Both the position numbers and the translations under genes were made by a program. A stretch of 64,000 bases of DNA, taken from positions 64,001-128,000 of IMG/VR virus record IMGVR_UViG_3300021400_001615. One strand, written 5' to 3'. Below, one piece after another: positions 1-33,600 of the stretch (its first letter is position 1; each line of letters opens with the position of its first letter). Source of the DNA: a virus (lineage: Duplodnaviria > Caudoviricetes). The notes below the pieces were generated by a model. That model made no database searches, was not told where the DNA came from, and was given only the letters and a program-made list of their open reading frames with translations.

Positions 1-1227
1 TACGCATTGTTGCTATATACTGTTGGGCAACCGTGGGAAGAAGATCCAACATTAAAGCCTGATGACGGTGTTATACAAATATATACTAAAAGGTTTGATG
101 ACGGCGAGTATTTGTGTGGTATACGAAATCCGCATAATAGTGCTAATAATATAGGTTATTTTAAGAACGTTAAACATCCATTAATGGAAAAATATTTCGA
201 TTTTAGCAATAATATTATGGCTGTTAATTGTATTCATACTGATGTTCAGGCTAGAATGAATGGAGAGGATTTTGATTCCGATTTTAATTTTGTTACTAAT
301 CAGCCACAAATGGTTGAAGCTGCCCGTATAGCATATAGAGACTATCCAACGGTTGTCAATGAAATTGGTGAAAGCGGAATGTCTTATGATAATACGATGG
401 CCGAATATGCCCGTATGGATTCTGCAATGCAAAGTGCGCAGAAAGCTATTGGCGGCTCCAGTGATACTGCCCAGCTTGCGCAGACTTATTATTGGACTAA
501 AGTTAATAAAAAGGAGTTTGACGATGACTGCAAACAGTATTACGAAAATACGGTTATACTTGCCGTCTGTGCGCAATTGGCCATTGATGGATGCAAACGT
601 GTGTTCGAGGTAAATGTTAACAATGATATTGCCAGGATACGTTCGCAGCCATGCATGAAAATGAAAAAAGATTACCCCGCTTTTATGAAATGGACCAAGG
701 AAATTCCGGTAACAAAGAATGGCAAAGATAGGTCTTATGCGGAAATTAAAAAGGACAAAGATAAACTAAAGGAAAGAATAAACGAGAATCTTCAATGTCC
801 TATGAATTGGTTACAAGATTGTTTTGATAAGCTGCAAGGAATTGATAAAAAAAGTGGCATTAAAACGATGTCATTTTTCATTAAGATTGAAGAAAAAAAA
901 CCGAATAATCGTCAAATGTCAAGAATTCGTAAATTAGTCGAGGAATATGACTATTTTATTAAAAGCCATTTAGACTATTTTGATACTTCAGATGGTTTTG
1001 AATTGTTGGTTAATTATCATAATAACCTTATGGAAAATATAAAGTTGAGACCGATTGGTCATCAAACAATGAATAGATTAATTGAGGCTTCACTTGGTTT
1101 ACTTGGCAGAGGTATAAGATATAAGAAAGCTACAAAATTTACAAGAAAAATGCTAAACGTGCTATATCAATATGATCATGAAAAATTTCTAAAAAATTTT
1201 GTCAAAAAATCGCAAATATTTAATTAA
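1..1227 (+). CDS. YonO-like single-subunit RNA polymerase, C-terminal part (5' end outside window)
   Basis: Frame open from base 1; catalytic-loop motif ARMNGEDFDSDF (DxDGD-like), RNPH motif, LAIDGCKR; precedes HU and the virion operon as SPbeta yonO does; no in-frame TAG. Confidence 0.8.
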   Translation, partial: YALLLYTVGQPWEEDPTLKPDDGVIQIYTKRFDDGEYLCGIRNPHNSANNIGYFKNVKHPLMEKYFDFSNNIMAVNCIHTDVQARMNGEDFDSDFNFVTNQPQMVEAARIAYRDYPTVVNEIGESGMSYDNTMAEYARMDSAMQSAQKAIGGSSDTAQLAQTYYWTKVNKKEFDDDCKQYYENTVILAVCAQLAIDGCKRVFEVNVNNDIARIRSQPCMKMKKDYPAFMKWTKEIPVTKNGKDRSYAEIKKDKDKLKERINENLQCPMNWLQDCFDKLQGIDKKSGIKTMSFFIKIEEKKPNNRQMSRIRKLVEEYDYFIKSHLDYFDTSDGFELLVNYHNNLMENIKLRPIGHQTMNRLIEASLGLLGRGIRYKKATKFTRKMLNVLYQYDHEKFLKNFVKKSQIFN

Positions 1228-1463
1228 AACTACTGACTTTTTTTAAAATCAATGTGCTTCAAAGAACTAAAATCTAGTGTTTAAATAGCGATTAATTCCT
1301 AAAGTCTTATATGAGGGAATTACATGTTCTCTCTACCGCTATTGCCGAGTGCGGTATATATAAATATGGATTCATGAATGCTTTGTACCTTCTGGGTGTT
1401 ATATAGGTTAAACATCCATTTTTCTACAAAAACATTTTAAGGATATAAAAGGAGATTATTATT

Positions 1464-1781
1464 ATGACGAAAAAGGATTTTATTGTAAAAGTTACAGCCG
1501 ATGCTAATAAAATTATGCAAGAGGACGATACTAAAGCTAAAGTTACGCAGAAGATTGCTGCTGCTGTAATTGATAGTGCATTTGAAGCCATTATTGATGG
1601 TATGAAGAATGGACAAAGGGTTATTCCGCATAGCGGCTTCATTTTTAGCTCCGTATGGAAAGAAGCGCATGTGGCAAAAAATAATTTATTTGGCGGTGGC
1701 GAGGTCGAAGTTCCCGGCAAATACATTCCCAAGATTAAGTTTGGTCCACACGTTAAAGAAGGTATTAACTCCGAAGATTGA
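1464..1781 (+). CDS. HU-like DNA-binding protein (YonN-like)
   Basis: MTKKDFI start, GFIFS..., VEVPGKYIPKIKFG resemble the HU fold; RBS AAAGGAG. Confidence 0.8.
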   Translation: MTKKDFIVKVTADANKIMQEDDTKAKVTQKIAAAVIDSAFEAIIDGMKNGQRVIPHSGFIFSSVWKEAHVAKNNLFGGGEVEVPGKYIPKIKFGPHVKEGINSED

Positions 1782-1853
1782 TTCATATACTTTTTTATTA
1801 TTCTAAATTCTTATTTCCTCCTCTCCCATTTCAAAATAGAATTTAGTTTTATG

Positions 1854-1880
1854 CCGGTAGCTATAATGCTACCGGTTTTT
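1854..1880 (+). terminator. Intrinsic terminator
   Basis: CCGGTAGC-tataat-GCTACCGG followed by TTTTT. Confidence 0.7.
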
Positions 1881-1885
1881 ATTTA

Positions 1886-1959
1886 TAGAGTATGTGGTGT
1901 AACAGTAACACGCCGATTTTGGGAGTCGGAGTATCCCGGGCGGCACGGGCATATTCTAC
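1886..1959 (+). tRNA. tRNA-Pro(TGG) with non-canonical T-loop
   Basis: Acceptor TAGAGTA/TATTCTA; anticodon arm CCGAT-tt TGG ga-GTCGG; T arm CCCG-ggcggca-CGGG; no encoded CCA. Confidence 0.7.
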
Positions 1960-2005
1960 TTGTGAATAATTTAATATTATTTTCAAAATATACTTATTAA
2001 AGGGG

Positions 2006-2203
2006 TTGAAATTATTGATTGCAATTTCTAGAGAAGAAGCTCGTATGATCAGAGAAGCTGGCAGAGGCGAAGATGTTCATATGAGTTCAAGAAGTAAAAA
2101 ATCTCGTGGAAAGAGATATTTTCTTACAGAGTCATATAAAAGTATGAAGCTGCTAAATGATTATAGAAATGAAAGAACTTCTGAAGTACACGAGAGGAGT
2201 TGA
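2006..2203 (+). CDS. Small basic hypothetical protein
   Basis: 65 aa ORF, TTG start after AAAGGGG, in operon. Confidence 0.6.
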   Translation: MKLLIAISREEARMIREAGRGEDVHMSSRSKKSRGKRYFLTESYKSMKLLNDYRNERTSEVHERS

Positions 2204-2209
2204 TATTAA

Positions 2210-3025
2210 TTGGGTCATGAATTCTATAAAGGTTATAAAGAAATAACCGGAAATACTTATGAAATAAATGAGTACATGGAGAACATCAATACGTCCATTT
2301 GGTATCCAAATGAGTATTTGATTATTAACAATATTGATGATGGAAGTACAAAAGAAATGCGCTGGGATGGAAACAGTTTTGTTCCATTAAGACTTCCAAA
2401 TTCTAAATTTATAAAAGGAAAGAATGCTCTGCAAAGATGCGCTCTTGATATGCTTAATAATAAGGATATTACTATTTGTGTAATACTTGGTACTTATGGC
2501 AGCGGAAAATCTTACCTTCTTACTAGAATGGCCGATTACTGTGTTAGGGAAAAAGGATGGCAATCCAAGATTTGTTTTATTCGTGAACCTTGGGGTGAAG
2601 GTCGTGAAGAGGGTTATTTAAAGGGGGATTTTTCGCAGAAGAATGAAATATGGACTCTTCCGATTAAACAGCAATTTGATGGTCAAGAGTATGAGGTTGA
2701 CCGAATGCAGGATCAGGGTCTCATTGAATTTAATATTCCTACTTATATGAAAGGGACCACCTATCCATATACCGTCATGGTCATCGATGAAGCGGAAGAT
2801 CTGACGGAAAAACAGATAAGACTTATTGGCACTAGAATAGGCGAGGGAGGAAGAACGTTCTGGGATGGCGATTATAGACAATCGCTGTTGGATGATTCTT
2901 ATGATAATCCTCTCTTAAAAATGTGTAATGAATTTAAAGGTTCAAAGCTATTTGGAGTTATCACTCTTGAAGAAGATGTTAGAAGCGAAACCAGTAGGTT
3001 ATTCGCTAATTTATTTAATGATTAA
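2210..3025 (+). CDS. phoH: PhoH-family ATPase
   Basis: KNALQ, Walker A GTYGSGKS, GYLKG, YMKGTT, Walker B VIDEAE, DGDYRQ, VRSETS. Confidence 0.9.
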   Translation: MGHEFYKGYKEITGNTYEINEYMENINTSIWYPNEYLIINNIDDGSTKEMRWDGNSFVPLRLPNSKFIKGKNALQRCALDMLNNKDITICVILGTYGSGKSYLLTRMADYCVREKGWQSKICFIREPWGEGREEGYLKGDFSQKNEIWTLPIKQQFDGQEYEVDRMQDQGLIEFNIPTYMKGTTYPYTVMVIDEAEDLTEKQIRLIGTRIGEGGRTFWDGDYRQSLLDDSYDNPLLKMCNEFKGSKLFGVITLEEDVRSETSRLFANLFND

Positions 3026-3038
3026 AAGGAGAAAAGAT

Positions 3039-3368
3039 ATGGAGATTCGCACATTAAAAAATGAAAACAAAGTAACAAATGCAGCCAATGTAAAGGGCAA
3101 GGTTATTCGTAAAGCACAAATTGCCCGGCAGTTAGTACAGCGTGGTCAGAGAATTATTGATATTAAGGCTGATAGAAATGATCCGGATGGCAAAAGATCA
3201 GTTTATGTATTTGAAGATAATGATGAATTTCAGAATGTGTTTTCATCTATTATTGAGGAAAACAAAAGAAACAGAGAGAATTCGGACATTGCCACGTTGA
3301 AAAGACAGGCTGAGGAAATGAGAAAGCAGATTGATGCACTTACAAAAAATGTAGACGAAAAGGAGTGA
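3039..3368 (+). CDS. Hypothetical protein (DUF5659-like) with C-terminal coiled coil
   Basis: RBS AAAGGAG before ATG 3039; IARQLVQRG..IIDIK...SVYVFE pattern. Confidence 0.6.
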   Translation: MEIRTLKNENKVTNAANVKGKVIRKAQIARQLVQRGQRIIDIKADRNDPDGKRSVYVFEDNDEFQNVFSSIIEENKRNRENSDIATLKRQAEEMRKQIDALTKNVDEKE

Positions 3369-3374
3369 TAGCTT

Positions 3375-4004
3375 ATGCAATTACTTGAACTACCCGTTAT
3401 TGAGAATATAAAATCCGATGGCTATCTTACGCCAGAGGAATATACATATTGGAAAGCAAGAGAAAGTAGAACTTTTATGATTGATTATGAAATTGACGAA
3501 GACTACTCTCTCATCGAATTAAGTAAAATTATCATTCAAATGAATATGGATGAAATGAATATACCAAAGGAAGAATTAAAGCCGATTTACATTTGGGTTC
3601 ATAGCTTTGGCGGTGATATGCAGCAGCAAAGATTTTTTTCTGATCTATTAATTTCAAGCCGCATCCCTATTGTCACAATTGCTATGGGCGCAGCCATGTC
3701 TGCTGGATTTTTAATTTTCCTGGCTGGTCATAAACGCTATGCTTTTCCACATTCCAAGTTATTGGTTCATGATGGATATGCCGGATTTGAGGGAACTGCA
3801 TCTGAGATGGAGGAATTTCAGAAAAATTACAAGAAAATGATTTCTGAAATGAAGGAATATGTACTTTCCAGAACCACGATAGATGAAAAGACATTTAAAA
3901 AATATCAAAATAAAGATTGGTATTTAACCTCCGAAGAATTATTGAAGTTTCATGTTGTTGATAAACTAATTGATAATATTGAGGATATTTTTAGTGGGGA
4001 ATAA
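3375..4004 (+). CDS. clpP: ClpP-like serine protease
   Basis: PIYIWVHSFGG, catalytic Ser in GAAMSAG, His in LLVHDG, DWYLTSEELLKFHVVD. Confidence 0.9.
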   Translation: MQLLELPVIENIKSDGYLTPEEYTYWKARESRTFMIDYEIDEDYSLIELSKIIIQMNMDEMNIPKEELKPIYIWVHSFGGDMQQQRFFSDLLISSRIPIVTIAMGAAMSAGFLIFLAGHKRYAFPHSKLLVHDGYAGFEGTASEMEEFQKNYKKMISEMKEYVLSRTTIDEKTFKKYQNKDWYLTSEELLKFHVVDKLIDNIEDIFSGE

Positions 4005-4083
4005 TTTTCCCCACATTTTAATTATATAAAAAACATCTCGTGCATTTGTAAGAGTTAAATGGTTAATAAAAGGAGAAAATAAT

Positions 4084-4305
4084 ATGGCTAAAAATTATAC
4101 ATACAATAGAGTTTTGACTGATAAGTTTAATATTAAAGGTGTTCTTTCCGAGGACTGCAAAACTATTACCTATGTAAATGGTGATAAGGAAGAACTGCAA
4201 ATTGATGTAGCTAAATGTTTCGAACCGTTTAAGGGCGAGGAAATTACTCTTGTTATTACTGTTAAGCAGGATCAGGATCTTTCGGATGAATTTGAGGAGG
4301 AATGA
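4084..4305 (+). CDS. YonK-like small protein
   Basis: FNIKGVL...FKGEEITLVITVK resembles SPbeta YonK; same position before the metallophosphoesterase. Confidence 0.6.
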   Translation: MAKNYTYNRVLTDKFNIKGVLSEDCKTITYVNGDKEELQIDVAKCFEPFKGEEITLVITVKQDQDLSDEFEEE

Positions 4306-4306
4306 T

Positions 4307-5512
4307 ATGGCCTCTGTAAATCTTAACAAAAGACCCGATGAATCTGAGCTTGGTTATATTAATAGGATAGGTAACTATAAGGTTTCCGGTATTATTGATA
4401 TGACCTGGACGGAATTGGCGGACTTATTTAATAAAAATTTACGTGAACCCGGCGAATGGTGGACTGAGTCTGCATATAGAAAGAAGTTCGCAAACATGCG
4501 ACGCTTCAAAGAGGAATTTGCCGGTGACACTACTGATATTAATGAAATTGATGAGCTTAAAGAACTTAAACGTGAGTTAGAAAAAGAGAAAGTCAAAGTT
4601 CGTGACGAGCGCAATGAATACCGCAAGCTGATCCGTGACGAGGCTAGGAAGGAGTCTTATCAGGATCAGTTTATTCGTTCCATTGAAGAAACAGCAGGAA
4701 AATACGCTCTTGATAATACTGTTAAATATCACATTCATACTGTTTCGGATAATGATATGATTATTTGTTTAACGGATATACATGCCGGTATAGAGGTCCA
4801 TAATTTCTGGAATAATTATGATAAAGATATACTTAAAGAACGTTTACAGCATTATCTTTCTAGAATACATGAAATTAGAGAAAGACATAAAGCTCAGAAT
4901 GCTTACCTTGTTATCTCTGAACTTTTGTCTGGTATAATTCATCCAACTCTTCGTATTCAAAATAACCAGGATCTTATAGATCAATTTTTAATGATCACAG
5001 ATTATCTTTGCGATTTCATTAAAGATCTGAGTACAGAATTTAATAATGTAAACGTGTATGTTGCTCCCGGAAATCATAGCAGAATAAATCCAAAGAAGGA
5101 TCAAGATCTTGCTCACGAAAATATGGATAATTTGGTTATTCCTTTTTTAAAAGCGAGATTGCAAAATTATTCCAATGTAAAATGCTGGGATAATCTTATA
5201 GAACAATCTATGGCTGTTTTTAACGTTAGGAAATTGACGGTTGTTGCTGTACATGGTGACAGGGATTCTTTTTCTTCCGTAGCTGATAATGTAAGTAAGA
5301 TGTTGGGTGCGAAGGTTGATTTGGTGATTACTGGTCATAAGCATACCAACAGAATGATGACAGATTCTGACGTGAAGGTTGTTCAAAGTGGGTGCTTATC
5401 TGGAAGTGATGAGTTTGCTATTAATAATAGGCTTAGGAACAGGCCGGAACAGGTTGTTTGCATTATATCTGAAGCAGAGGGACTTGATTGTATTTATGAT
5501 ATTAAGTTTTAA
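4307..5512 (+). CDS. Calcineurin-like metallophosphoesterase with N-terminal coiled coil (YonJ-like)
   Basis: LTDIHAG, PGNHSR, VHGD, TGHKH motifs; ATG 4307 after GAGGAGG. Confidence 0.85.
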   Translation: MASVNLNKRPDESELGYINRIGNYKVSGIIDMTWTELADLFNKNLREPGEWWTESAYRKKFANMRRFKEEFAGDTTDINEIDELKELKRELEKEKVKVRDERNEYRKLIRDEARKESYQDQFIRSIEETAGKYALDNTVKYHIHTVSDNDMIICLTDIHAGIEVHNFWNNYDKDILKERLQHYLSRIHEIRERHKAQNAYLVISELLSGIIHPTLRIQNNQDLIDQFLMITDYLCDFIKDLSTEFNNVNVYVAPGNHSRINPKKDQDLAHENMDNLVIPFLKARLQNYSNVKCWDNLIEQSMAVFNVRKLTVVAVHGDRDSFSSVADNVSKMLGAKVDLVITGHKHTNRMMTDSDVKVVQSGCLSGSDEFAINNRLRNRPEQVVCIISEAEGLDCIYDIKF

Positions 5513-5524
5513 AGGAGAAAAAGG

Positions 5525-6091
5525 ATGAATAAAATTATTATTAATGATGGCAATGATCTTGCCCGTGAGATTTTAGGATATTTATCCGATCATGAATGTA
5601 TTGATGATTTTGGTGTTGTTGCTGATTATTATACTATTTGTGATTTATTAAATGGACTTATTAAGGATGATAATAATTGTTATAATGCAGTTTCTGTCGA
5701 TCTTCATGATCCAGAATATGATAATTATGATGACGCATATTATCTTGAGGGTAATGTGAATACACAAGAGATATACGTTGGAAAGATGATTTGTGAGGGT
5801 CATGATGATTTTTTAATTATAATGGGCGATGTTATATTCATCGATCATATATATCTGGATCAGTATATGGAGTCGAAAAATTCTTCAAAGAATTTAAAAG
5901 TATTTGCTTATGCTGATGATGAATATGATCACGCTGATTATGCACCATGTTTTTGTTGGAAAGACGAAGATCACAAGGGGTTTTCATTTTGTGTTGATAA
6001 TGATCATGATCATGTAAGAATTAAATATGAAGGTACTAAGACGCTTACTACTGATGAAGCTTATAAGATTATTGATAGTTATTTTGATTAA
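5525..6091 (+). CDS. Acidic hypothetical protein
   Basis: 188 aa ORF with RBS AAAGGAG. Confidence 0.7.
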   Translation: MNKIIINDGNDLAREILGYLSDHECIDDFGVVADYYTICDLLNGLIKDDNNCYNAVSVDLHDPEYDNYDDAYYLEGNVNTQEIYVGKMICEGHDDFLIIMGDVIFIDHIYLDQYMESKNSSKNLKVFAYADDEYDHADYAPCFCWKDEDHKGFSFCVDNDHDHVRIKYEGTKTLTTDEAYKIIDSYFD

Positions 6092-6096
6092 GCGTT

Positions 6097-6124
6097 CGGG
6101 ATGGGTACTTGTCCCCTGTTTTTT
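6097..6124 (+). terminator. Intrinsic terminator
   Basis: CGGGGATGGG-tac-TTGTCCCCTG hairpin then T-run. Confidence 0.55.
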
Positions 6125-6149
6125 ATAAATGTAGATTATAATGTCTACA

Positions 6150-6207
6150 GTCGATGTGGCTAATGGAGTCGTGTTTTATACATGTGGTTCGAATCCGCAC
6201 ATCGGCT
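6150..6207 (+). ncRNA. Minimal or degenerate tRNA-like element
   Basis: 7-bp acceptor GTCGATG/CATCGGC and canonical T arm TGTGG-TTCGAAT-CCGCA, but only 26 nt between them. Confidence 0.55.
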
Positions 6208-6249
6208 TTATGCGTCAATCGCAAAAATGATTAAAAGGATGGTGAAATT

Positions 6250-7308
6250 ATGATTAGGTTAAAACCCGCTTTATCCGAGGAAGAGATTAGAAAAACTGGC
6301 GTTGCAGAAGTGCGTAAAGCCTATAACAATCTCGCAAAAGATTATAATCGTATACTTGATGGTAAGCTTTGCTATTGTCATAAATGCAATGAGTTTCGAA
6401 ACGCCGATGCTTTTTATTCGAATAAGAATTATGCAAGCGGAGCCTTTCCAATATGCAAAAAATGTTTAATGGAAATGGCTTGCGACTATGATAAAAAAAC
6501 AAATCAGTATACGGATAATCGTGAAAAAACTATGGAAGTGTTAAAAATGATGGATCTTCCATATATAGATTCATTATATCAATCCGCTCTTACTTCTACT
6601 AATGAGGACATTCAGGACAAGCACAGAAGTACTGCGTGGAGTCAGTATATAGTAATGATAAAAAGTTTGTTTCAATATAAAGATAAGAAATGGAAAGACT
6701 CAGAACTTCCGGTGGATTATTTGGATAAAGATGAAGAAGAAATAAATGAAAATTCCAGAATGCTTAAACAAGCAAAGAAGCGTTTTGGTGATGGTTATAC
6801 TAATTCCGATCTTTTGTTTCTAGAAACCGAATATAGAGATTGGATAAAACGTTATGCCTGTGAAAATAAAGCGCAGGAAATATTGTTCAAGAGGATTTGT
6901 TTTAAGGAGCTTGAGATAGATAAGGCGCAAAAATCAGGCAGAGACACAAAGGAATTGGATAAAACCTTGCAGGATTTGATGGGCAGTATGTCTTTGAAGC
7001 CAAATCAAAATAATTCAAATGCTCTTACAGAGGCAAAGACATTTGGCCAGTTAATTCAAAAATGGGAAAACGAAAAACCTATTCCTGAGCCAGAAGGCGA
7101 TTTTAAGGACGTTGATAAAATCGGCGTTTATCTTGATGTATTTTTTAAAGGTCATCTATCTAAGATGATGGGATTAAAAAATGCTTTCACGCCTTTATAT
7201 GATAGGTTTATGAAAAAGTATACGGTCAATAAGCCGCAGTATGATGAGGATTCCGATTCTGAAGCGTTATTTGACCAGATTTTTGGTACGAATTTGGATG
7301 ACGCATAA
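6250..7308 (+). CDS. Zn-finger protein preceding TerL (putative terminase small subunit)
   Basis: CHKC/CKKC pairs; TFGQLIQKWENEKPIPEP; TAA overlaps TerL ATG (TAATG); function inferred from position. Confidence 0.55.
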   Translation: MIRLKPALSEEEIRKTGVAEVRKAYNNLAKDYNRILDGKLCYCHKCNEFRNADAFYSNKNYASGAFPICKKCLMEMACDYDKKTNQYTDNREKTMEVLKMMDLPYIDSLYQSALTSTNEDIQDKHRSTAWSQYIVMIKSLFQYKDKKWKDSELPVDYLDKDEEEINENSRMLKQAKKRFGDGYTNSDLLFLETEYRDWIKRYACENKAQEILFKRICFKELEIDKAQKSGRDTKELDKTLQDLMGSMSLKPNQNNSNALTEAKTFGQLIQKWENEKPIPEPEGDFKDVDKIGVYLDVFFKGHLSKMMGLKNAFTPLYDRFMKKYTVNKPQYDEDSDSEALFDQIFGTNLDDA

Positions 7309-9059
7309 TGGCTGAAATAAAAAAAACTGTTCGTGAAATTGCTCAGGATAAAGAACAGAAAATAATGGAAACCGTTGCCTGGAGAGCTTCTTATTATAGA
7401 GCTAATCCACAAAGATATGTTGAAGAGGTTCTTGGTATTCACTTGAAGTTATTTCAGAAAATCCTTATATGGGCAATGATGTAGTATCACTATTTTATGT
7501 TTATTGCTGCTCGAGGAATGTCAAAAACATGGTTAACAGCATTGTTTTGTGTTGTAAGATGCATATTATATCCCGGTAGCAAAATAGTTGTATGCGCCGG
7601 TACATTAAAATAGGCCAATGGTGTTCTATTAAAAATACAAGATGAATTTATGAAACAATCGTCCATTTTGTGTAGTGAAATTGAGAGGTGTAATATTTCA
7701 TAGAATGAGGCGATTATCATGTTTAAAAATGGCTCTTGGATAACTACGAGGACAAGTACAGATAATGCTCGTGGTGCCAGGGCAAATATAATAGTTGTCG
7801 ATGAATTCCGGATGGTTGATGAGACAATTTTGAATATGGTTATAAGAAAATTCTTAACAAGTCCCAGACAGCCGAATTACTTAAATAAGCCTCAATATGC
7901 TCATTTACAAGAAAGAAATAAAGAAATATATATGTCTAGTGCATATTTTAAGTCTTCTTGGGCATGGAAAAAATTACAGGCTTATGTATTAAATTTCTTT
8001 GATGATACAAAAAAATATTTTGTCTGTGGATTGCCGTATCAATTAAGCATTAAAGAGGGACTACTATCTCGTGAGCAAATTAGAGATGAAATGAGCGAGT
8101 CAGACTTTAATGAACTTGCTTTTATTATGGAAATGGAAGCAATTTGGTTTGGTGATACGGGTGACAATTTATTCAGGTTTGAAGAAATAAATAAATGCAG
8201 AAAGATAAAGAATGCTTTATTACCTCTAAAGTTTTACAATGACAAAATAAAGGTTCCAGATTCGCTGCAAACCGAAAAGCGCATATTATCTGTTGACGTT
8301 GCTTTAATGGGATCGTCAAAGAAGAAAAAAAATGATGCTTCTGCACTATATATTAATAGTGCGATTTAGTCAGATAATGTAACATATCATTCTAACATTA
8401 TATATGGGGAAACTTTTGAGGGGTTAACAACTGATGAACTTGGAATTATTGTTATGAGATATTTTTATAAATACAAATGTACAGACTTGGTACTTGATAG
8501 TAACGGACTGGGCCTTGGTGTCGCCGATTTCATTTGTAAGGACCAATATGACTCAGAGACCGGTGAAACATACAAAGCCATATGTTGTTGTAATGATGAT
8601 GATATGGCGGCAAGGTGTAAAGTTAAAGATGCTGTAAAAGCAATGTGGTCAGTCAAGGCAACAAGCAACTTTAATAATGAAGTTTGTGTATTATTAAGGA
8701 CTGGAATACAAAATGGAAAAATTAGCTTTTTGGTTTCAGAGGAAGATTGCGATGAAAGTATATCCAAGATTTATAAATAGTATTCTAAATTAAGTCCAAC
8801 AGATCGAACTTATATCAAAATGCCGTATTTGCAAACAACAATGGCTGAGTATGAATTAATTAAGTTAGATCATGAGGTTAGAAATGGTAATATTAAAGTT
8901 AAAGAACAATCCGGTATGAGAAAAGACCGCTACTCTTCTATTGCTTATAATTATTGGTGTGCTTGTCAACTTGAGTTGAAACTGCGGCCAAAACAGAATG
9001 ATAATAATTTGGTGAACTATTTGCCAATTCGTCCGGCAAAAAGGTTCAGATCTATTTGA
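7308..9059 (+). CDS. terL: Terminase large subunit, 583 aa, 5 in-frame TAG read as Gln
   Basis: One frame with TAG at 7482, 7611, 7701, 8367, 8778; Walker A AARGMSKT, GTLK*AN (TxxQA), RGARANIIVVDE, LSVDVA, VLDSNGLG, RKDRYSS. Confidence 0.92.
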
Positions 9060-10784: not shown

Positions 10785-10833
10785 TTAGTCTCCTCTCGGA
10801 GAAATTTTGAAGAAAGGAGGAATATAAAGAAAA

Positions 10834-12492
10834 ATGCATAAAAAGTTATTGACGATTGATGATCTTGTAAAATTCTGCGACTAGAACAATTTTGCAAAAT
10901 TTAGTTCTAAGGAATCTGGTTATCAAATTTGCATATAGACACCGGCAAAATTTGAAATGAGTAGCTCTGATGATCCAACTATGTTTTATGGAAATGTCTT
11001 AGTAATGCATTCTGGTAATAACAGGAATGGATCCTCTTTGACTGAAGATGCGGCGAAGAAGGCAATCAAAAATCTTGCTTATAAACCGGTATTGGCTAAT
11101 TTTTGCGAAATTGATGGTGTAAAGGATTTTACTAGTCATGATTTTGATATAGACGAGAATGGCGAATATGTTTATTACGAAAAGCAAATTGGCTGTTTTA
11201 CTGCTGATAAGGCTTATATGGAACAGGATAGTAATCATAGCGACCGTATGAATGTATTTGCAAAGGTTGCCATTCCCCGTGAATATACAGATGCAGCCGA
11301 AATAATTGAGAGAAAAAACGGCACAAAGGTATCTGTTGAGCTTGCCGTTAATGAACTATCTTATTCTGCTAAAGATCACGTTCTTTTACTTGAAGACGTT
11401 GATGTAATGGGTCTTACTTGTCTTGGAGTTAATCCAGACACCGGGGATCCCGTAAACGAGGGAATGGAGGGCGCTCATATCCAGATTGAGGATTTTAGTG
11501 CCGAAAATAATTCTCTTGTTTTTAATGCAGAGATTATTAATTCGATTGCTGATGCTGTTGCAAAACGGCTTAGTGATAAAAACGATAACCAAAGAAAGGA
11601 GGACGAAACAGTGGATTTCGAAGAAAAAAACGAAGAAGTTGTTGAAGAAACAGAGGTAATGTCTGAAGAAGTTGAAACCACTGAAGAGGAAGTTCGTGAG
11701 GTTGATACCGAGACATCTGAAGAGGTTGTTGATGATACTACTGAAGAAGTCGCTGATGAAACTCCTGAAGTGGTTGATAGTTTTGCCGATGATGATCCGG
11801 TCGATAATACGGATGATAATACGGATGAAAACACGGATGATAATACGGATGACGAAGAAGTTGTAATTGATGATGACACTTTACCGCCAACATATAAAAA
11901 GGTTGTTAATGGTATGGAGTTTGAATTATCTCTTTCCGACATTCAGAATGCTATGTATGATCTTGTCAATTCTACATATGCTGAATCTGATAACGATTAT
12001 TATGTGTGTGAAATTTATCAGGATTCTAAAAGCGTTGTAATGATTGGAATGTGGTCTGGTAAGGCATTCAAACAAAACTACAAAGTCCGCAATGATGTTT
12101 ATAGTCTTGTTGGTGACAGGGTTCCTGTAAGGGCTTCCTGGCTAACTGCCGACGAAGAGGCAGAACTTGACAGAATGAGAAGCAACTACTCTTCTGTCGT
12201 TGATAAGCTGGCTAAGTATGAATCCGAACCACAGAAAATGGACATTTTAAATTCCGATGACTATTCTCAGGTTGCAAACAGTAATGAGTTTATTGCACTT
12301 AAAGATGTTGATAAACATTTTGATATGACAATTGATGAGGTGCGTAGTGCAGCCGACAGTATTCTTCTTTCATATGCAAAAGGCAATAAGATTGATTTTG
12401 CTGAAAATGAAAAGAAACGTGATGGCGGCCTGAAACTGTTTGCTTCTAAGGATAAAAAGAAACCCGGTAGATACGGCAATTTATTTAAATGA
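10834..12492 (+). CDS. Prohead protease/scaffold (YonD-like), TAG at codons 17 and 35
   Basis: RBS AAAGGAGG; TAG at 10882 and 10936; MHSGNNRNGS and KVSVEL protease-like motifs; acidic scaffold-like C-terminal half. Confidence 0.8.
11803..11850 (+). repeat. 12-nt tandem repeat x4 (DNTD) in scaffold linker
   Basis: GATAATACGGAT GATAATACGGAT GAAAACACGGAT GATAATACGGAT. Confidence 0.9.
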
Positions 12493-15289: not shown

Positions 15290-15618
15290 AAACCAGGTAT
15301 GGCTATTATTCTTCCAATTAGATTAAATCAATTAAGTATCTCATTCGTAAATCCATATTTTTCTTACTTCTTTATGTTGATCCACAAACGAAAGACGAAT
15401 ATCCAAATATTAATGTTGGAGATGCCTTTCGTAGCTTATAGTACAGGCTTTCTGGTTTAAACAGTATATTAAACGAGCCTGTGGAAATTGTTGAAACAAT
15501 GATTTTGTTAGAATCTGCACTTGCAGAATACGAGAGTGAATGTTTTGATTGGTTGAAATACAGAAAGCTCATCCTCGACGCTGGGGCAAAGATAATGCAG
15601 ATAAAGGAGTGTGATTAA
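15286..15618 (+). CDS. Hypothetical neck-region protein, 2 TAG
   Basis: ATGA overlap with upstream gene; TAG at 15319 and 15439; ends TAA. Confidence 0.7.
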
Positions 15619-15619
15619 T

Positions 15620-18600
15620 ATGGCACTTTCTTTTAGAGATTTTAAAAATATGCATGGTATTAGTACTCCCGGAAGAGCAAGAAAAATGTAGAGTGATGTG
15701 ATTATGTTGAATACATGGTGGCAAGATATATAGGCGTAGAATGCTTATATTTATGATTATTACCATGATCAGCTATCTGACGAAGCCCGTCAGTTAAATG
15801 ATCTTCATCCATAGGATGATCCTTATAAAACAGTATTGCCAATTAAGTTTATTCGACATGCTAAATAGACATATGATAAAGACCAGGTAACTTTTTGGTT
15901 ACAAATGTAGCCGGGGCAAGAATGTAATTTAGATTATTATAATGAAATGTTTCGTGATCGTTATGATGCATTATTCCCTATTGGCCTTTTCGTGGATATA
16001 ATGCATGAAGATGGAACATATAATAAATGGCTTATTGTTGATAAGGCTAATTATAATGGGAATCAGTTTCCCACTTTTGAAATATTAAGATGTGATTTTG
16101 TAGCACAGTGGATTTATAACGGACACAAATATTAGTGTCCCGCCGTTTTAAGAAGTCAGAATTCGTAGATTGTGCGCTTCATAAAGGAAACTTTATGTCG
16201 AAAGTTCTCTAATTGCGGGAAACCCCTTAGAGCCAACATGCTAAAGCGGAAGAATGAAATAGGTCTAAACGTAAAAGCTATAAAAAGTTGTTGGATTGGG
16301 CAACCAACGCAGCGAAGTCCTGAACAGGGATGTGTTCAACGAGCAAAGTAAGACAAGTGTCTGAAAACGGGAACCACCTAAATCTATAAAGACATGGTGT
16401 TGATATGCTCTAACCTTATATGAAAATATAAGAAAATTATTTTATATGTTTGATAAGTGTTGCGATTATTATAATATATATAATTTTTCTACTGATTAAC
16501 GACCAGTAGATCATTTCCTGATAATTCTGGCCTCTGGTTGGACTTTAAAATTTAGAGCGTAGAGGATAAAAGCTTGTCCCTTATATCAGTAATGATATAA
16601 GAAAACTCCTTGAATTGCTGGAAATCCCTTAGAGCCGATATACCACAACATGACGTTGCGATTACGTGAGTGTGATGGTTAAAAAACATATTGGATTGGG
16701 TAATCAGCAGCCAAGCCCTGATGAGGGGAAGGTTCAACGACTATGTGACGCAAGTGCGTTCTGCGAGGAGGATCTCTTGGAGATTATGATATAGTCTGAA
16801 CTTTATGCGAAAGCATAAGAAAAATTGTTTATGTCGATTTGATAAAAGGATAGGACAGCGGGTTGCAAACCGTTTTATATTACCATAATAGTATAATTAC
16901 TATCTTTTTATATATATATATTACTTTTATGGAGGTAATTTATGGGTAAAAAATTGGTATTATCTACAGAAGAAAAAGAACTTATTGTATCAATGTATAA
17001 AAATGGAAGTAAGTTATCTGATATAGAAAATGCGATAGGTCATTGCGACAAATACATTTATGAAACATTAAATGAGTATGGCATTGAAAAAAATAGAAAA
17101 ACAAAACCAATTTCTTCGGAACAGCTTCAATTAATAATTGATTGTCATAGAGATGGTTTATCATATGAACAAATATCAGAGAAATTAGATAATTATATCT
17201 CATCTACTAGGGTATATGAGATATTAAAAGAAAATGGGGAAACTAACTCATTCTCAATTGATAAAGTTAATTCCATTATAGATTTTCAAAGTAAAGATAA
17301 TCATAGAAAATATTATTTTGATGAACATCTGCTTGATGTTGTTAACACTCCGGATAAGGCGTATTGTATTGGTTTGTTTATGGCAGACGGGTGCAATCAG
17401 TTAGATAAAAGTTATTTTTCTATTGTGTTACAAGCAAGAGATAGAGATATTCTCGACAAAATTAGCATAATGTTCTAGTCTGATTACCCGTTACATTTTC
17501 GTGATTCATCTAAATATGATTATATGGCGCAAGATGTATATACTATTCGTTGGAATTCAAAATATTTTTGTAAGAAATTAAATGAACTGGGAATTGTACC
17601 GAATAAGAGTCTTATATTAGAGTTTCCATACTGGTTGGATAGACATTTGATTCCATATTTGATTAAAGGCTACATAGATGGGGATGGATGGATAAATACA
17701 AATCAAATTGGATTTATGAGTACAGAAAAGTTTTGTATTGGTGTACAAGAATATTTAAATTCAATAGGTATATCTTCGTATATAATGGATATGAAAAGAC
17801 ATTATAGCAACCAGACAAAAGAGTTGCTTATAAGTGGCAGAAACAATATATGGCCATTAGCCAGAATAATGTTTTCACATGGAAATCTATACTTAAACCG
17901 AAAATATCAAAAATATATTGATTATAAGTTTATTGATATAAACAATTCTTTATTGAATTAACGACTCAATAGAGTAACATATTTGTAGCAGAAATTTGCT
18001 GTCCCGATGAACCGTGATACAGAAACACTATTTTATAATATTCGTATGATCATAGATTCTAAAGTAGAGACCGAGAAACGTGCATGGCTCATTTCAAAGG
18101 TAAATCGTATATCACCGAATGGTATATGTCGTGTCACATTAACTCAGGATACATATGATCAACATACTGATTATATAGAAAAAGATGAAGACGGTAATAT
18201 TATTGGAATGTGGGCAAATTACTTTAAGAGTAATGTAGAACCAACGCCGGTGGAAATTCAGGATGATACAGTACCACACTACTCTTCCATCACATCTAAA
18301 ATTACTTGCTCTGGCAAACCGCAATTTAAAATTGGTGGCTCAGCTAAAACATTCACAGTTACCTATTACGATTCTAATAATGAAGAACTATATGACCATA
18401 GCGTTGGCAATTGGTCGTTAACTATTGATAACGAATTGGTTGCGTCAGATGTCGTTTCTATTGAAGAAGTTGCTGATTCTTCAAATAAGATTAAGATTAA
18501 ATTTCTTGGTGACGATTCGTATATAGGCAAAGTATTAACTATAACTAATACTTCGGATGATGTAGTTTCATCTCTTGAAGTTGAAATTATTGCACTTTGA
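15620..18600 (+). CDS. Neck/head-closure-region protein, 3 exons (15620-16166, 16521-16567, 17986-18600), 402 aa, 9 TAG
   Basis: Exon lengths sum to 1209 nt (multiple of 3); spliced junctions read RSQNS/YNSGLWLDFKIQSVED/QQKFAVPMNRDTE; function from position only. Confidence 0.75.
16167..16520 (+). ncRNA. Group I intron (ORF-less)
   Basis: Exon ends U, intron ends G; AATTGCGGGAA, CGCAGCGAAG, GTTCAACGAGCA / GATATGCTCT (compensatory P7); IGS ATTGT-GCG pairs both exons. Confidence 0.88.
16568..17985 (+). mobile_element. Group I intron carrying LAGLIDADG homing endonuclease
   Basis: AATTGCTGGAA, AATCAGCAGCCAAG, GTTCAACGACTA, GATATAGTCT; P1 GGAT/GTCC; 3' site could alternatively be G17988. Confidence 0.9.
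16942..17961 (+). CDS. Intron-encoded double-motif LAGLIDADG endonuclease with N-terminal HTH-like region, 339 aa, 1 TAG
   Basis: AYCIGLFMADG and LIKGYIDGDG joined in frame across TAG 17476; RBS GGAGGT. Confidence 0.88.
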
Positions 18601-20064: not shown

Positions 20065-21347
20065 ATGGCTTTTAAACTTGGTAATCATTATATTGACGAA
20101 ATTCTTTATGGCGTAGCTGAGAAAAATGGCAACATTGAGTACGCTCTTGACTAGCTGAGTTCTGCTTCTATCGAGATCAGTGCCGAATCTACGGATATCA
20201 CTGATAAGAAGGGGAATATCATCCGTACAACATATCGTTCGAAGACTGGTACATTTACTGCGACGAACGCTCTGCTTCATCCTGCGGCTATTAATGCTCA
20301 GTCTGGTAGCCCGATTAAATACGCATCTGCTGGTGAGGGCGGCGCTATTGTAATGCCTAAGATCATGGTTGCTGCTGCTGGCGAGGAAGTCACCATTGGT
20401 GAATATACTCAGGGTAGCGTTCGTGTAATTGGTCTGTTTGGTAATGGCGCTAATGATGTTGCGCTTGATGCTGAGGCCGTTGCTGCTGCTATTACTGGTA
20501 CTGGTGCAAACACCAAACTTCAGCTTCCGAAGACCGATGGTGGCCCCACTCAGTATCTTGTTAAGTTCGAAAGAAGCGTCACCTCTGGTGCTATGCTTCA
20601 GAATACTACTGCTGTAAGCTCCGATCTGGTTAAGCTTACCCTGTTCTGTGCAATGGGCGATCCTTGTGAAGATTCTCTTCGTCCTTGCTATGTAGTAATT
20701 CCGAGATTTGCTGCCGATCCTTCCATGACCATCTCTCTTGATGCTGAGACTCAGGAAGTTGACTTCAGCGGTAACCTCAACGTGGATTATTGCGCAGGAA
20801 CTTCCAGTTTATATTACATTTATCAATATATTTGCATTTTTAATCGTTGTTTTCAGACAATTGATTAACAATACGGATGGTAAGCATATAGGGAAACTTG
20901 TATGTAATAGTGATTTTCACTGAATTAAGAAACTGAATTGCTGGGACATCCTAAAGACAATAGAACTACAACATAATGATGAAATATGCATAAGTGTGAA
21001 TGTTGCGAAAGCGGAAAAAATCTATTGTATGACATATGGTTAAATCCTAAGTGTTGTTAAAAATGGATAATCAGCAGCCAAGCTTTGAATAGAAGAAGGT
21101 TCAACGACTATCCCTCTTGAGGGGAGTAGGTCATAAGCGTTTGATGACCGAAGTGGTTTCGCCTAACCCGCAGCAATGCGGTATGGATAAGATATAGTCT
21201 GTGCTTACATGAAAATGTAAGAAGTTCTTTGGAGAACTGTATGAAGAGTAGCGTCTTCGTATGAACATATATTTAAAATAAGAAATTATTTTAAATTATA
21301 AGTATCCCGATGAAGATCTTGTTATTAGTGGCACCTCTGTTGCCTAA
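20065..21347 (+). CDS. Major tail tube protein, 2 exons (20065-~20820, 21303-21347), TAG at codon 30
   Basis: RBS AAAGGAG; LD*LSSASIEISAES; spliced end LYYI(Y)/YPDEDLVISGTSVA*; position. Confidence 0.75.
20821..21302 (+). ncRNA. Group I intron (ORF-less); 5' site uncertain by 3 nt
   Basis: AATTGCTGGGA, AATCAGCAGCCAAG, GTTCAACGACTA, AAGATATAGTCT; ends AAG before TAT CCC GAT. Confidence 0.85.
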
Positions 21348-30601: not shown

Positions 30602-33600
30602 GTGGGTTTAGTAAATGAATTTAAGATAACTGTACCAATAGAGGTTGATACAAAACGAATGCGTTCCGATCTCAAAAGTCAGTTTACGCATATTAAAGAA
30701 GAATATGAGGGAGAGTTCATAAAAATAAGAATTACCGGTGATGAAAAGGATCTGGAGAAAATCAAACAGCAAATATCTCAAATGAATTCTAAAGATATTC
30801 CAAAAATAAAATTGGATATAGATCGTGCAAATTTTGATAAACACTTAAAAGATCTGGAAAATTCGGCGGGTAAATCTTCTAAGTAGATAGCGGATACTTT
30901 TAAAAGGAATATTGCGACGGGTTTTGAACCTTTAAGCATAGGCGATTTAATTAAGAAACAATTTGGTAATTCGAAAAGGTATTCTGGTACGGCAGCAAAA
31001 GAAACAATTGCAGCAATGGCACAACCGCTTTCTACGCCGCTTCCTGATGATGCAAGTTACATGGACATTGTAAGGAGGGCTGAGGCGTATGAACAGCTGG
31101 CAGCTGCCATAAAAGACGTACAATAGAATCACCCTAAAGATTTTAAGAAGCTTGGTATTGATCAAAATGAAGTCCAGGCTTCAATAGACCAGTTTTATCA
31201 ATAGATTGGCGCTAGAATTTCAAATGAGGCAAATCGCACTGATTTTATATCTCAAATATAGGCATCATTTGTTACATTGAGTTAGAACCTTGCCACGATG
31301 ATGCAATCTATTATTGATGATGTTAAAGCAAAAATAGGTGGTGGAACTGGAACCGGTACAGGAAGTGGAACCGGTTCTGGTGATGGATCTGGGACTGGTT
31401 CCGGTACGGGTGGTGGAACTGGTGCTGGTTCTGTAGAAATTCCCGGGGGATTTTAGTCGGACGAAATAAATGAATTGGATAATTAGATCGATAAATTGGC
31501 GCAAGATATAGAAAATGCAAAACAAAGATTGTAGGAATTACAAAATACGGGAAAGGATGCCAAAGCTTACGATATTAGGCAAATGATGAATGGTCTGTAC
31601 AAAGAAATTGACACTATATTGCAAGACCCCAATACAGATCCAGATGAAGCAGATAGAAAAGCTGAAGAATTAAAAAAGAGAATGCTAGATTTGTATGCTA
31701 CATATCAAAAGGTTGGTGGAAGCGATGGCGATTTAAATGAGACCATGTGGGAAGAAATGTATGACTGGATTGATGAGTATGGTGACGGCAAAGCAATCAA
31801 AGGGTTAAAAGTTGTAGATGAGGCTGCAATTGCTAATCAATAGTCCCTAATTCAAGGTCTTATTTCTACCCTCGATGCACTAAAAGCGAAACGGGAAGAG
31901 TTATTAAAGCAGCCATAGCCGTCGTCAACATAGCAAACCGGTTAGACTGGTTCTTCACCATCAAGTTCCGGTGATTAGTCTGGCACTCAATAGACTGGCG
32001 AAACAACGAAAATTCCCGTTGAGCCAGATGCAACTAATTTTATTGAAAAAATACAAGAATAGATTAGCGGACAAGCGGTTGATGTTGAGGTTAATCCCAT
32101 CGCCAACGATTTGAAGGAAAAAATTGAATCCTAGATACCAGAAATAGATATAAAATTGGGGAATATTTCTGGGGGAACCGTTAAGGGCAGTGATGCCTAT
32201 AATATAATAGAATCTTGGACTAAAAATAATAGAAAAGATATTTTTCAATCAAAGCCAGAACAAGGCATGGTAATGAATGATTCTACTGGTTATGCTTCTG
32301 AAATAGCCAATAGCACAGTTGCTGGATTAAGTACGGCCTTAATTAACTAGGCGATATAGAATGCGGAGGAAACAGTTAATAGCGTCGTGCATTCGCATCC
32401 AAATGAGTCTACTGCTGCTTTTAGTTTTGATGATATTCTTGCTGCTATTAATCAAAAGATTGAGGGCGTTGTTCATTAGTATGTTGTTTCCATTAATGAT
32501 GTTGCAGCTCTTGATGTTTCCAGTTTTTCACCTGTTGAATTAAAATAGATTTCTGACATCCTTAAATCTAAAATGGTCACTGTTGAGGGAAGTAATTTGC
32601 CCGTATGGGATGAAGAACAAGTATTTAGCGAAGTAATAAATAACAGCATTTAGGAATACATAAATAAAATATTAGTGTCGTTATAGAATTAGATGTTATC
32701 AGACGGATAGAATATTAATATTGTTCAAGATTTGATTGCCAGGGTTAATGAAAGCCTATCCAAAGTTCCATTATCTACAATGAATAACTGGGATAATTTT
32801 TATGATATAATACAACAGCATATAGATGAAGCGGCTAAATCGATGGATATTCCATAGTTTGATGCAAGTAGCATCGATGATCATATTTAGAGCGCGATGG
32901 CTCATGCAATATAGGTGTTTGCGGAAAACGCTCTTATGTCTGCGGTTAAACAAGTTAGACCGGATATCAATATTGGTGACGTTTACAAAAAAACTTCATT
33001 AGATAATTATTTTAGAGGAGAGAGTCTATTGCCGGGTGGTAAGGCAACCACTACTGTTTCTACTGAACCAACTTCTTCGGAACATACAGTCAAGGTTAAG
33101 ACCGATGTAAATTTTGACGATGTTCCCAGTAAACTTCAAGCCGCTATTGATTCAGGTAGTCCATATAAAGTTACTGTATCTACGGATGCATCTTCTATGA
33201 AAGAAATTATCTAGGGCGGCATTGACGCTGGGTCTCCGTATCAATTAACATCTATCCAACTTGGGCCAGATATGTAGATTGGTGAGCAAATACAACAGAA
33301 CATAGAATCTTTCGATTATCTTGTTAAACCAGATTTGGACCCATCTTCTGATTTGGCTGGTAAGGTAAGACAAGCGTTGGCTAGTGGCGAACCGTATAAG
33401 GTTATTTTGGAGGCCGATACTGGGAAGAATGGTTCTGGTGGTAAAACTGGTGAAAGTCCGATTTCATCGGGTAATGCACTTGGTGATTAGGTGGCCGAAA
33501 GCATGGATCGTGCTGCCAATTCAGCGGAAAACGCATCTAAGAAAATTGAAGAAGCAAATCAACGCATGAATTCCTATCGTGATGCATGGTAGAGAGAATC

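Follow-up and report, generated by a model that had tools for sequence, protein, structure and literature searches.

TAG-free genes, among them one for a YonO-like RNA polymerase, abut the recoded late genes of an SPbeta-like gut phage

We analysed the in-frame use of the codon TAG in a 64,000-nt stretch of phage DNA (the window; bases 64001-128000 of a single 160,883-bp, or 160.9-kb, contig of the IMG/VR record IMGVR_UViG_3300021400_001615), with emphasis on positions 1-7308, where a run of plus-strand genes that includes those for a phage RNA polymerase, PhoH, ClpP and an exonuclease abuts the gene of the large terminase (TerL). The analysis confirmed that the split between TAG-free and TAG-bearing genes at this point is real, frame-specific and far beyond chance. 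The late genes need a TAG reader from TerL codon 59 on, and a suppressor tRNA(CUA) gene, split by a group I intron, lies among them in the same orientation. On balance, we favour the reading that positions 1-7308 form the standard-code part of the plus-strand array, within a cascade in which the polymerase would produce late RNA and the suppressor, which would in turn allow the TAG-bearing genes to be translated. Unless marked as genome positions, coordinates refer to the window.

A sequence-only reading of this DNA had noted ten consecutive genes upstream of the terminase that use TAG neither as a sense codon nor as a stop. Both observations were borne out, since the ten plus-strand genes in 1-7308 hold no in-frame TAG in the roughly 2,160 codons visible, and all their stops are TAA or TGA. 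Genes were called as longest open reading frames (ORFs), with no trained gene finder; the plus-strand calls were the same under table 11 and with TAG read as glutamine (TAG=Q), and these genes yield identical proteins with or without TAG suppression, as had been proposed; the sole difference within 1-7308 was an upstream extension of the exonuclease ORF. The features of the stretch are as follows.

1-1227 (+), YonO-like single-chain RNA polymerase, 3' part (PHROG 8308); the whole gene, at genome 62516-65227, has 903 codons and 0 TAG
1464-1781 (+), HU-like DNA-binding protein in the position of SPbeta yonN, by synteny; TAG-free (Pfam PF00216, E 9e-10)
1853-1876 (+), terminator-like hairpin after the HU gene (9 bp, 6 of them GC, then a T run)
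1886-1974 (+), tRNA-Pro(UGG)-like gene with a GC hairpin replacing the T arm (ARAGORN, lowered threshold)
2006-2203 (+), small ORF of 65 aa (orf2006); TAG-free
2210-3025 (+), PhoH-like ATPase; TAG-free (Pfam PF02562, E 8e-26)
2928-3368 (+), function-unassigned ORF (orf2928); TAG-free
3375-4004 (+), ClpP-family protease; TAG-free (Pfam PF00574, E 2e-23)
3994-4014, terminator-like hairpin
4084-4305 (+), small ORF of 73 aa (orf4084), kept in relatives; TAG-free
4250-5512 (+), YonJ-like exonuclease/phosphoesterase; TAG-free (PHROG 284, E 1e-58; Pfam PF12850)
5525-6091 (+), function-unassigned ORF (orf5525); TAG-free
6098-6115 (+), terminator-like hairpin after orf5525
6150-6206 (+), tRNA-like remnant of about 57 nt, with a 7-bp acceptor stem and a canonical GTTCGAATC T arm
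6250-7308 (+), YonG-like protein, the last TAG-free gene, whose stop overlaps the TerL start (BLASTP against SPbeta YonG, 36% identity, E 1e-58)
7308-9059 (+), TerL (YonF-like), with in-frame TAG at codons 59, 102, 132, 354 and 491

The 5' part of the polymerase gene lies in the preceding window, and its inspection showed that the whole gene (903 codons, 30 of them Gln codons) is without TAG, as are the three plus-strand genes that precede it. Together, the twelve plus-strand genes at genome 59.7-71.3 kb contain 0 TAG in 3,494 codons and end in TAA (7) or TGA (5); this tally covers nine of the ten genes in 1-7308, the ORF at 4084-4305 being left out. An in-frame TAG in the exonuclease arises only when its ORF is extended upstream to 4178; relatives start the gene after orf4084, which leaves that TAG outside it, and the true start is probably near 4300.

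The first in-frame TAG of the plus-strand array was found at 7482-7484 (+), in TerL codon 59, exactly where the earlier reading had placed it. The late block, which runs from TerL to genome 151.1 kb, comprises 58 ORFs and 24,288 codons with 226 in-frame TAGs, corresponding to a TAG/(TAG+CAA+CAG) ratio of 0.218 (21.8%). The binomial test that had been suggested was run as a beta-binomial fitted to the late genes, so that gene-to-gene spread was allowed for; the probability of zero TAG was 1e-9 for the twelve plus-strand genes and 5e-5 when the same model was limited to the genes from orf2006 to the YonG-like gene. Permutation of gene order produced an equally long TAG-free run in 7 of 100,000 trials (P = 7e-5). 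Off-frame TAG was alike on both sides of the border (11-14 versus 13-16 per 1000 codons), and base composition is therefore not the cause of the in-frame gap. The caveat that the portal and a few later genes also lack TAG holds: the portal and nine other late genes, with 0-16 Gln codons each, are TAG-free, but each lies within or near the chance spread, and the portal (16 Gln codons) carries TAGs in relatives. A gene read in the standard code necessarily has no in-frame TAG; what is informative is that the regime changes between abutting, co-oriented genes and that TAG stops are nearly absent.

At the genome scale, TAG-bearing genes were present only in the plus-strand block at genome 71.3-151.1 kb. 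Both minus-strand blocks (from 151 kb to the end of the contig, and from its start to 57 kb) were TAG-free, save for doubtful short ORFs, as were the plus-strand genes at genome 59.7-71.3 kb; TAA or TGA closes 151 ORFs outside the late block, whereas TAG closes no more than 5 there, all of them short and doubtful. The sharp border before the terminase is thus present in this genome, as first reported, but it is the left edge of the sole recoded block and not a peculiarity of the pre-terminase genes alone, since all genes outside the plus-strand late block lack TAG; relatives, moreover, differ in where the border falls.

We assign the phage, on homology and gene order, to the SPbeta-like gut phages, as a relative of Bacillus phage SPbeta. 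Its TerL is 44% identical to SPbeta YonF, and the SPbeta order is kept around TerL, namely yonO, yonN (HU), yonJ (exonuclease), yonG, yonF (TerL) and yonE (portal). The features shared with SPbeta-like phages are this gene order and homologous TerL, YonG, YonJ and portal proteins, the portal and exonuclease with PHROG matches. PhoH, orf2928, ClpP and orf4084 are insertions ahead of the exonuclease that are absent at that place in SPbeta.

The meaning of TAG was read from alignments of orthologues from 28 related loci, in which TAG was marked apart from CAA and CAG. TAGs of this phage face genuine Gln codons (CAA/CAG) in 76 of 150 aligned cells and those of relatives face Gln of this phage in 54 of 105, the Gln-Gln background in the same alignments being 0.60; TerL codon 102 (TAG) corresponds to Gln in SPbeta YonF. 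The alignments indicate that TAG is read as glutamine, a reading that would be confined to the late virion genes. Readings as Ser, Leu or Tyr, prompted by the long extra arm of the suppressor tRNA, were rejected on the rarity of those residues in the alignments.

Evidence for the identity of the polymerase came from a BLASTP match to SPbeta YonO (E 8e-7 over 391 residues) and from the hhalign comparison of a 22-member family profile with YonO (probability 94.7%, E 5.6e-8, 384 columns). Residues D585, D587 and D589 are invariant in 22 homologues and align on the DNDGD of YonO; the motif of the phage protein is EDFDSD, with Ser in place of the Gly of the DxDGD-type metal-binding motif. Pfam and NCBIfam contained no family for the polymerase, and a profile search of solved structures gave no match. 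These alignments point to a distant homologue of the YonO family, approximately 21-25% identical to YonO. In SPbeta, late genes are transcribed by YonO as a single operon starting upstream of yonK (Forrest et al. 2017, PMC5467207), and by analogy the phage polymerase would transcribe the late operon here. The two phages share the gene order, a YonO homologue with the same three Asp residues and the placement of the polymerase gene directly upstream of the genes that it transcribes in SPbeta; in contrast, SPbeta uses the standard code, has no suppressor and lacks the four inserted genes.

The suppressor was found by using blastn and nhmmer with the intronless tRNA(CUA) genes, of about 90 nt, of recoded relatives.

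23246-23550 (+), suppressor tRNA(CUA): exon 1 at 23246-23281, group I intron at 23282-23493, exon 2 at 23494-23550

The match at genome 87494-87549 (91% identity) starts at anticodon base 36, and the 5' half of the gene ends at 87281; the 56-nt 3' part is 91% identical to the intronless suppressor of the related locus L008. Standard tRNA finders miss this gene because the 212-nt intron, inserted between anticodon bases 35 and 36, splits it; ARAGORN and Rfam reported only four tRNAs (Thr, Gln-UUG, Met and Leu; genome 28.9-30.3 kb), none with a CUA anticodon, and together with a pattern scan of the genome they revealed no tRNA(CUA) besides the split one. The intron scored 50.5 bits against the group I model RF00028 (gathering score 50; E 7e-12 in a 600-nt search) and was missed by this model in the whole-window run with default filters. 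Both the U before the 5' splice site and the G as last intron base are in the sequence, and splicing in silico gave a canonical 93-nt tRNA(CUA). Over 22122-23361, which covers exon 1 and the start of the intron, identical sequence was present in another sample from this study, among contigs of four DNA runs; these contigs showed no intron-less DNA form, and their many short joints come from other organisms or repeats. An exact-pattern scan of viral contigs for the exon-intron junction returned nothing, and a scan of viral contigs for the G-preceded 3' exon returned three chance matches only, none of them a tRNA. A CTA loop with a wobble stem at genome 27.9 kb was dropped as a suppressor candidate, as it lies within a coding region.

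Cyanobacterial tRNA-Leu(UAA) and Azoarcus tRNA-Ile are examples of tRNAs with a group I intron. Such introns in bacterial tRNA anticodon loops have been reviewed (PMC3984707). Like them, the intron described here is short, lies inside the anticodon loop, follows a U and ends in G; unlike them, it interrupts a phage amber suppressor, is inserted between anticodon bases 35 and 36 and has intronless counterparts in relatives. No intron in a suppressor tRNA is described in the recoded-phage literature that was searched, part of which was represented by titles and abstracts only. Suppressor tRNAs have been detected in only 40% of recoded phage genomes (Borges et al., bioRxiv 10.1101/2021.08.26.457843), and an anticodon intron is one concrete reason why they would escape detection. 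The late block holds three further group I introns (RF00028), at 16154-16432, 16557-16819 and 20880-21221, with scores of 60.7, 100.9 and 65.7 bits, respectively; an ORF at 15611-16351 with 8 apparent TAGs runs into the first of these, and this gene is probably split into exons.

In the cascade that we favour, host polymerase and standard translation would produce the phage polymerase, which is TAG-free and can therefore be made under the standard code. The phage polymerase would then transcribe a long late operon starting just after the HU gene, as in SPbeta, and the first genes of this operon (PhoH, ClpP, exonuclease and YonG-like) would be translated at once. The pre-tRNA would be made about 21 kb into the operon, splice itself and be loaded with glutamine, and only then would the TerL, virion, tail and lysis proteins be completed. 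By its position, the start of the late operon would fall between the hairpin at 1853-1876 and orf2006, at about 1.9-2.0 kb, and a TAG-free stretch of about 5.3 kb would, on the SPbeta analogy, belong to the operon that depends on the polymerase. A search of 25 plus-strand intergenic regions for a shared late-promoter motif returned only AT-rich words and ribosome-binding sites. A feed-forward cascade of this kind had been proposed by the sequence-only reading. Part of it stands: the polymerase is TAG-free over its full length and akin to YonO, and the suppressor is co-oriented within the late block, which makes a polymerase-to-suppressor cascade reasonable. Another part needs change: the suppressor does not precede the TAG-bearing genes but is encoded 15.9 kb downstream from the first TAG, and it needs removal of its intron.

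Several observations weigh against the cascade. Approximately 28 in-frame TAGs precede the suppressor, and operon order itself thus does not put the suppressor first. The hairpins at 1853-1876, 3994-4014 and 6098-6115 could split the array into separate units, and the operon start is placed by position only, because orf2006 does not detectably resemble SPbeta YonK. In relatives, TAGs are present in PhoH, orf5525-like and YonG-like genes, and a TAG-free polymerase is the rule, not a necessity: no stops interrupt the polymerase in G001, G002, G003 and the visible part of L008, but that of L120 has a TAG at codon 31, within its conserved, coding N-terminus. A search of 25 plus-strand intergenic regions for a shared late-promoter motif returned only AT-rich words and ribosome-binding sites.

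Relatives were taken from IMG/VR and comprised 97 related loci, with the closest ones (TerL 85-89% identical, contigs of up to 164 kb) left out. Ten of the 97 loci have at least two in-frame TAGs in TerL (nine carry 7-14, L116 only 2), and 87 are standard-code relatives, two of which carry tRNA(CUA). In-frame TAGs in the relatives' counterparts of the leader genes were distributed as follows.

PhoH: 4 in L008, 5 in L027, 1 in L026
orf5525-like: 4 in L009, 3 in L027
YonG-like: 5 in L027, 3 in L009, 2 in L035, 1 in L010, 8 in L120
ClpP and exonuclease: none, save one each in L120

ClpP is TAG-free in 6 recoded relatives; without L120, none of 33 Gln positions in ClpP and none of 36 in the exonuclease is TAG. 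Among relatives the counts range from 0-5 in PhoH, 0-8 in YonG-like genes and 0-7 in the portal to 4-14 in TerL, and this genome is less recoded than its kin (5 TAGs in TerL versus 7-14). The occurrence of TAGs in the PhoH, orf5525-like and YonG-like genes of recoded relatives marks the sharp border at TerL as particular to this genome; it is not conserved, but a trait of this genome and its nearest kin. The conserved border of the phage group is that between the polymerase/HU genes and the presumed late operon. More generally, the code border falls at different places in close relatives, and its sharpness in a single genome therefore need not reflect a conserved design.

The position of the suppressor also varies. 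G002, a complete genome of 185 kb with terminal repeats, has the same layout, with a TAG-free leader from the polymerase to orf5525; its first TAG falls in the YonG-like gene, and its suppressor is intronless and lies about 20 kb past TerL. L008, L026 and L027 carry the suppressor after the exonuclease/orf5525 region and before the YonG-like gene. PhoH carries TAGs in all three genomes with the suppressor just before the YonG-like gene, versus none of three without it there (in this genome and in G002 the suppressor is distal, and in G001 it was not located), a comparison that, given the small sample and the kinship of the genomes, is only a hint. It is conceivable, if doubtful, that the arrangement acts as a delay line, in which the polymerase and the TAG-free operon leader come first and TAG-gated packaging, virion and lysis genes await a distal self-splicing suppressor, with the upstream reach of TAG following the position of the suppressor.

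Two other explanations were weighed. One, which we regard as improbable, treats the genes up to the YonG-like gene as early or middle genes transcribed by host polymerase, gives the suppressor its own promoter and takes the border as the start of the virion genes. Such a split is the published general pattern of recoded phages (bioRxiv 10.1101/2021.08.26.457843), PhoH, ClpP and the exonuclease do not belong to the virion, and the hairpins at 1853-1876 and 6098-6115, together with the tRNA remnant at 6150-6206, could mark unit borders. However, the YonO-dependent operon of SPbeta starts upstream of yonK-yonJ-yonG-yonF, and homologues of yonJ and yonG lie in the TAG-free part here; the TAGs in relatives' PhoH, orf5525-like and YonG-like genes argue that these genes are expressed while suppression is active, and a scan for sigma-70-type promoters showed no excess, with 36 sites versus 44 in shuffled sequence.

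The other, to which we give slightly less credence still, is that the border reflects history and has no regulatory meaning: CAG would drift to TAG gene by gene, and the genes from PhoH to YonG either have not yet been hit or were recently swapped in from a standard-code relative. The wide differences in TAG load per gene among relatives and the lower load of this genome are consistent with this account, as are the absence of PhoH, orf2928, ClpP and orf4084 at this place in SPbeta and the abundance of standard-code relatives (87 of 97 loci, two of them with tRNA(CUA)). Against this, zero TAG from orf2006 to YonG is unlikely at the late-gene rate even with the spread allowed for (P = 5e-5), ClpP and the exonuclease are TAG-free in all relatives but L120, which suggests selection on particular genes, and G002 has the same TAG-free leader.

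The general design, with standard-code early genes, recoded late genes and a suppressor as switch, has already been published. Gut phages are known that read TAG as Gln ('code 15') and in which recoding is confined to late, structural and lysis genes (Borges et al., bioRxiv 10.1101/2021.08.26.457843; Yutin et al. 2021, PMC7886860; Peters et al. 2022, PMC9523058). Like them, this phage restricts in-frame TAG to virion, tail and lysis genes, keeps early and replication genes in the standard code, carries its own suppressor tRNA(CUA) and nearly avoids TAG as a stop, with the timing of late proteins as the proposed role. Unlike them, it belongs to an SPbeta-like lineage and not to the crAss-like, Lak or other named clades checked, has a YonO-type polymerase upstream of the recoded block and has a suppressor split by a group I intron. 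[quoted passage not shown] Both arrangements place standard-code genes directly upstream of recoded ones in one array and can be read as a switch for the downstream genes; the leader here differs in that it holds neither synthetase nor release factor but a polymerase, PhoH, ClpP and an exonuclease, the first recoded genes lie upstream of the suppressor, and the recoded codon is TAG instead of TGA. This locus contributes the SPbeta/YonO setting, a TAG-free leader within a presumed late operon, a border that varies among kin and an intron-split suppressor. Stop-codon recoding of late genes is thereby extended to SPbeta-like phages, the one group with an experimentally known phage polymerase (YonO) driving the late operon and with a type phage that grows in a laboratory host, and the idea of recoding as timing is thus open to ordinary genetics.

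Further features were noted around these subjects. The acceptor, D and anticodon arms of the tRNA-Pro(UGG)-like gene at 1886-1974 align with those of the tRNA-Pro that neighbours the suppressor in relatives; this gene lies between the HU terminator and orf2006, and SPbeta has an unannotated RNA at the YonO start site. The remnant at 6150-6206 is without proper D or anticodon arms, and the same place in L008, L026 and L027 holds tRNA genes, including the suppressor. In L120 the polymerase gene (1352-4681) is in three pieces, probably interrupted by introns, and its TAG codon 31 stands just before Met codon 33; the polymerase gene of G002 is in two pieces. The tRNA(CUA) genes of standard-code relatives lie at 4061-4147 in L040 and 503-575 in L042, loci whose TerL is without in-frame TAG, and match the published idea that a suppressor is gained before recoding.

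The heaviest TAG load of the genome is in a single 4,753-codon ORF at 30590-44851, with 92 in-frame TAGs (27% of its Gln positions). Beyond the window, at genome 158286-160037 (+), four short plus-strand ORFs within the minus-strand early block have 1-2 in-frame TAGs each; they could be spurious or could form a second, small recoded island. A hepatitis delta virus (HDV)-like ribozyme (RF02682, 46.4 bits) lies between two minus-strand ORFs at genome 57582-57652 (L004 1582-1652, minus strand), where a tRNA(CUA) was sought nearby (genome 57.6 kb) and not found; no tRNA adjoins it, unlike the published theta ribozymes. The GC-rich 2.4-kb stretch that holds it (genome 57.3-59.7 kb) also contains a weak twister-P1-like match (L004 2351-2405). 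Several tRNA-like pieces occur among the four true tRNAs at genome 29.2-29.9 kb (L002 10200-10880, minus strand), among them a partial match to YrlA (Y RNA-like; L002 10347-10422) and, at 10805-10876, a tRNA-shaped gene whose anticodon loop has 6 nt.

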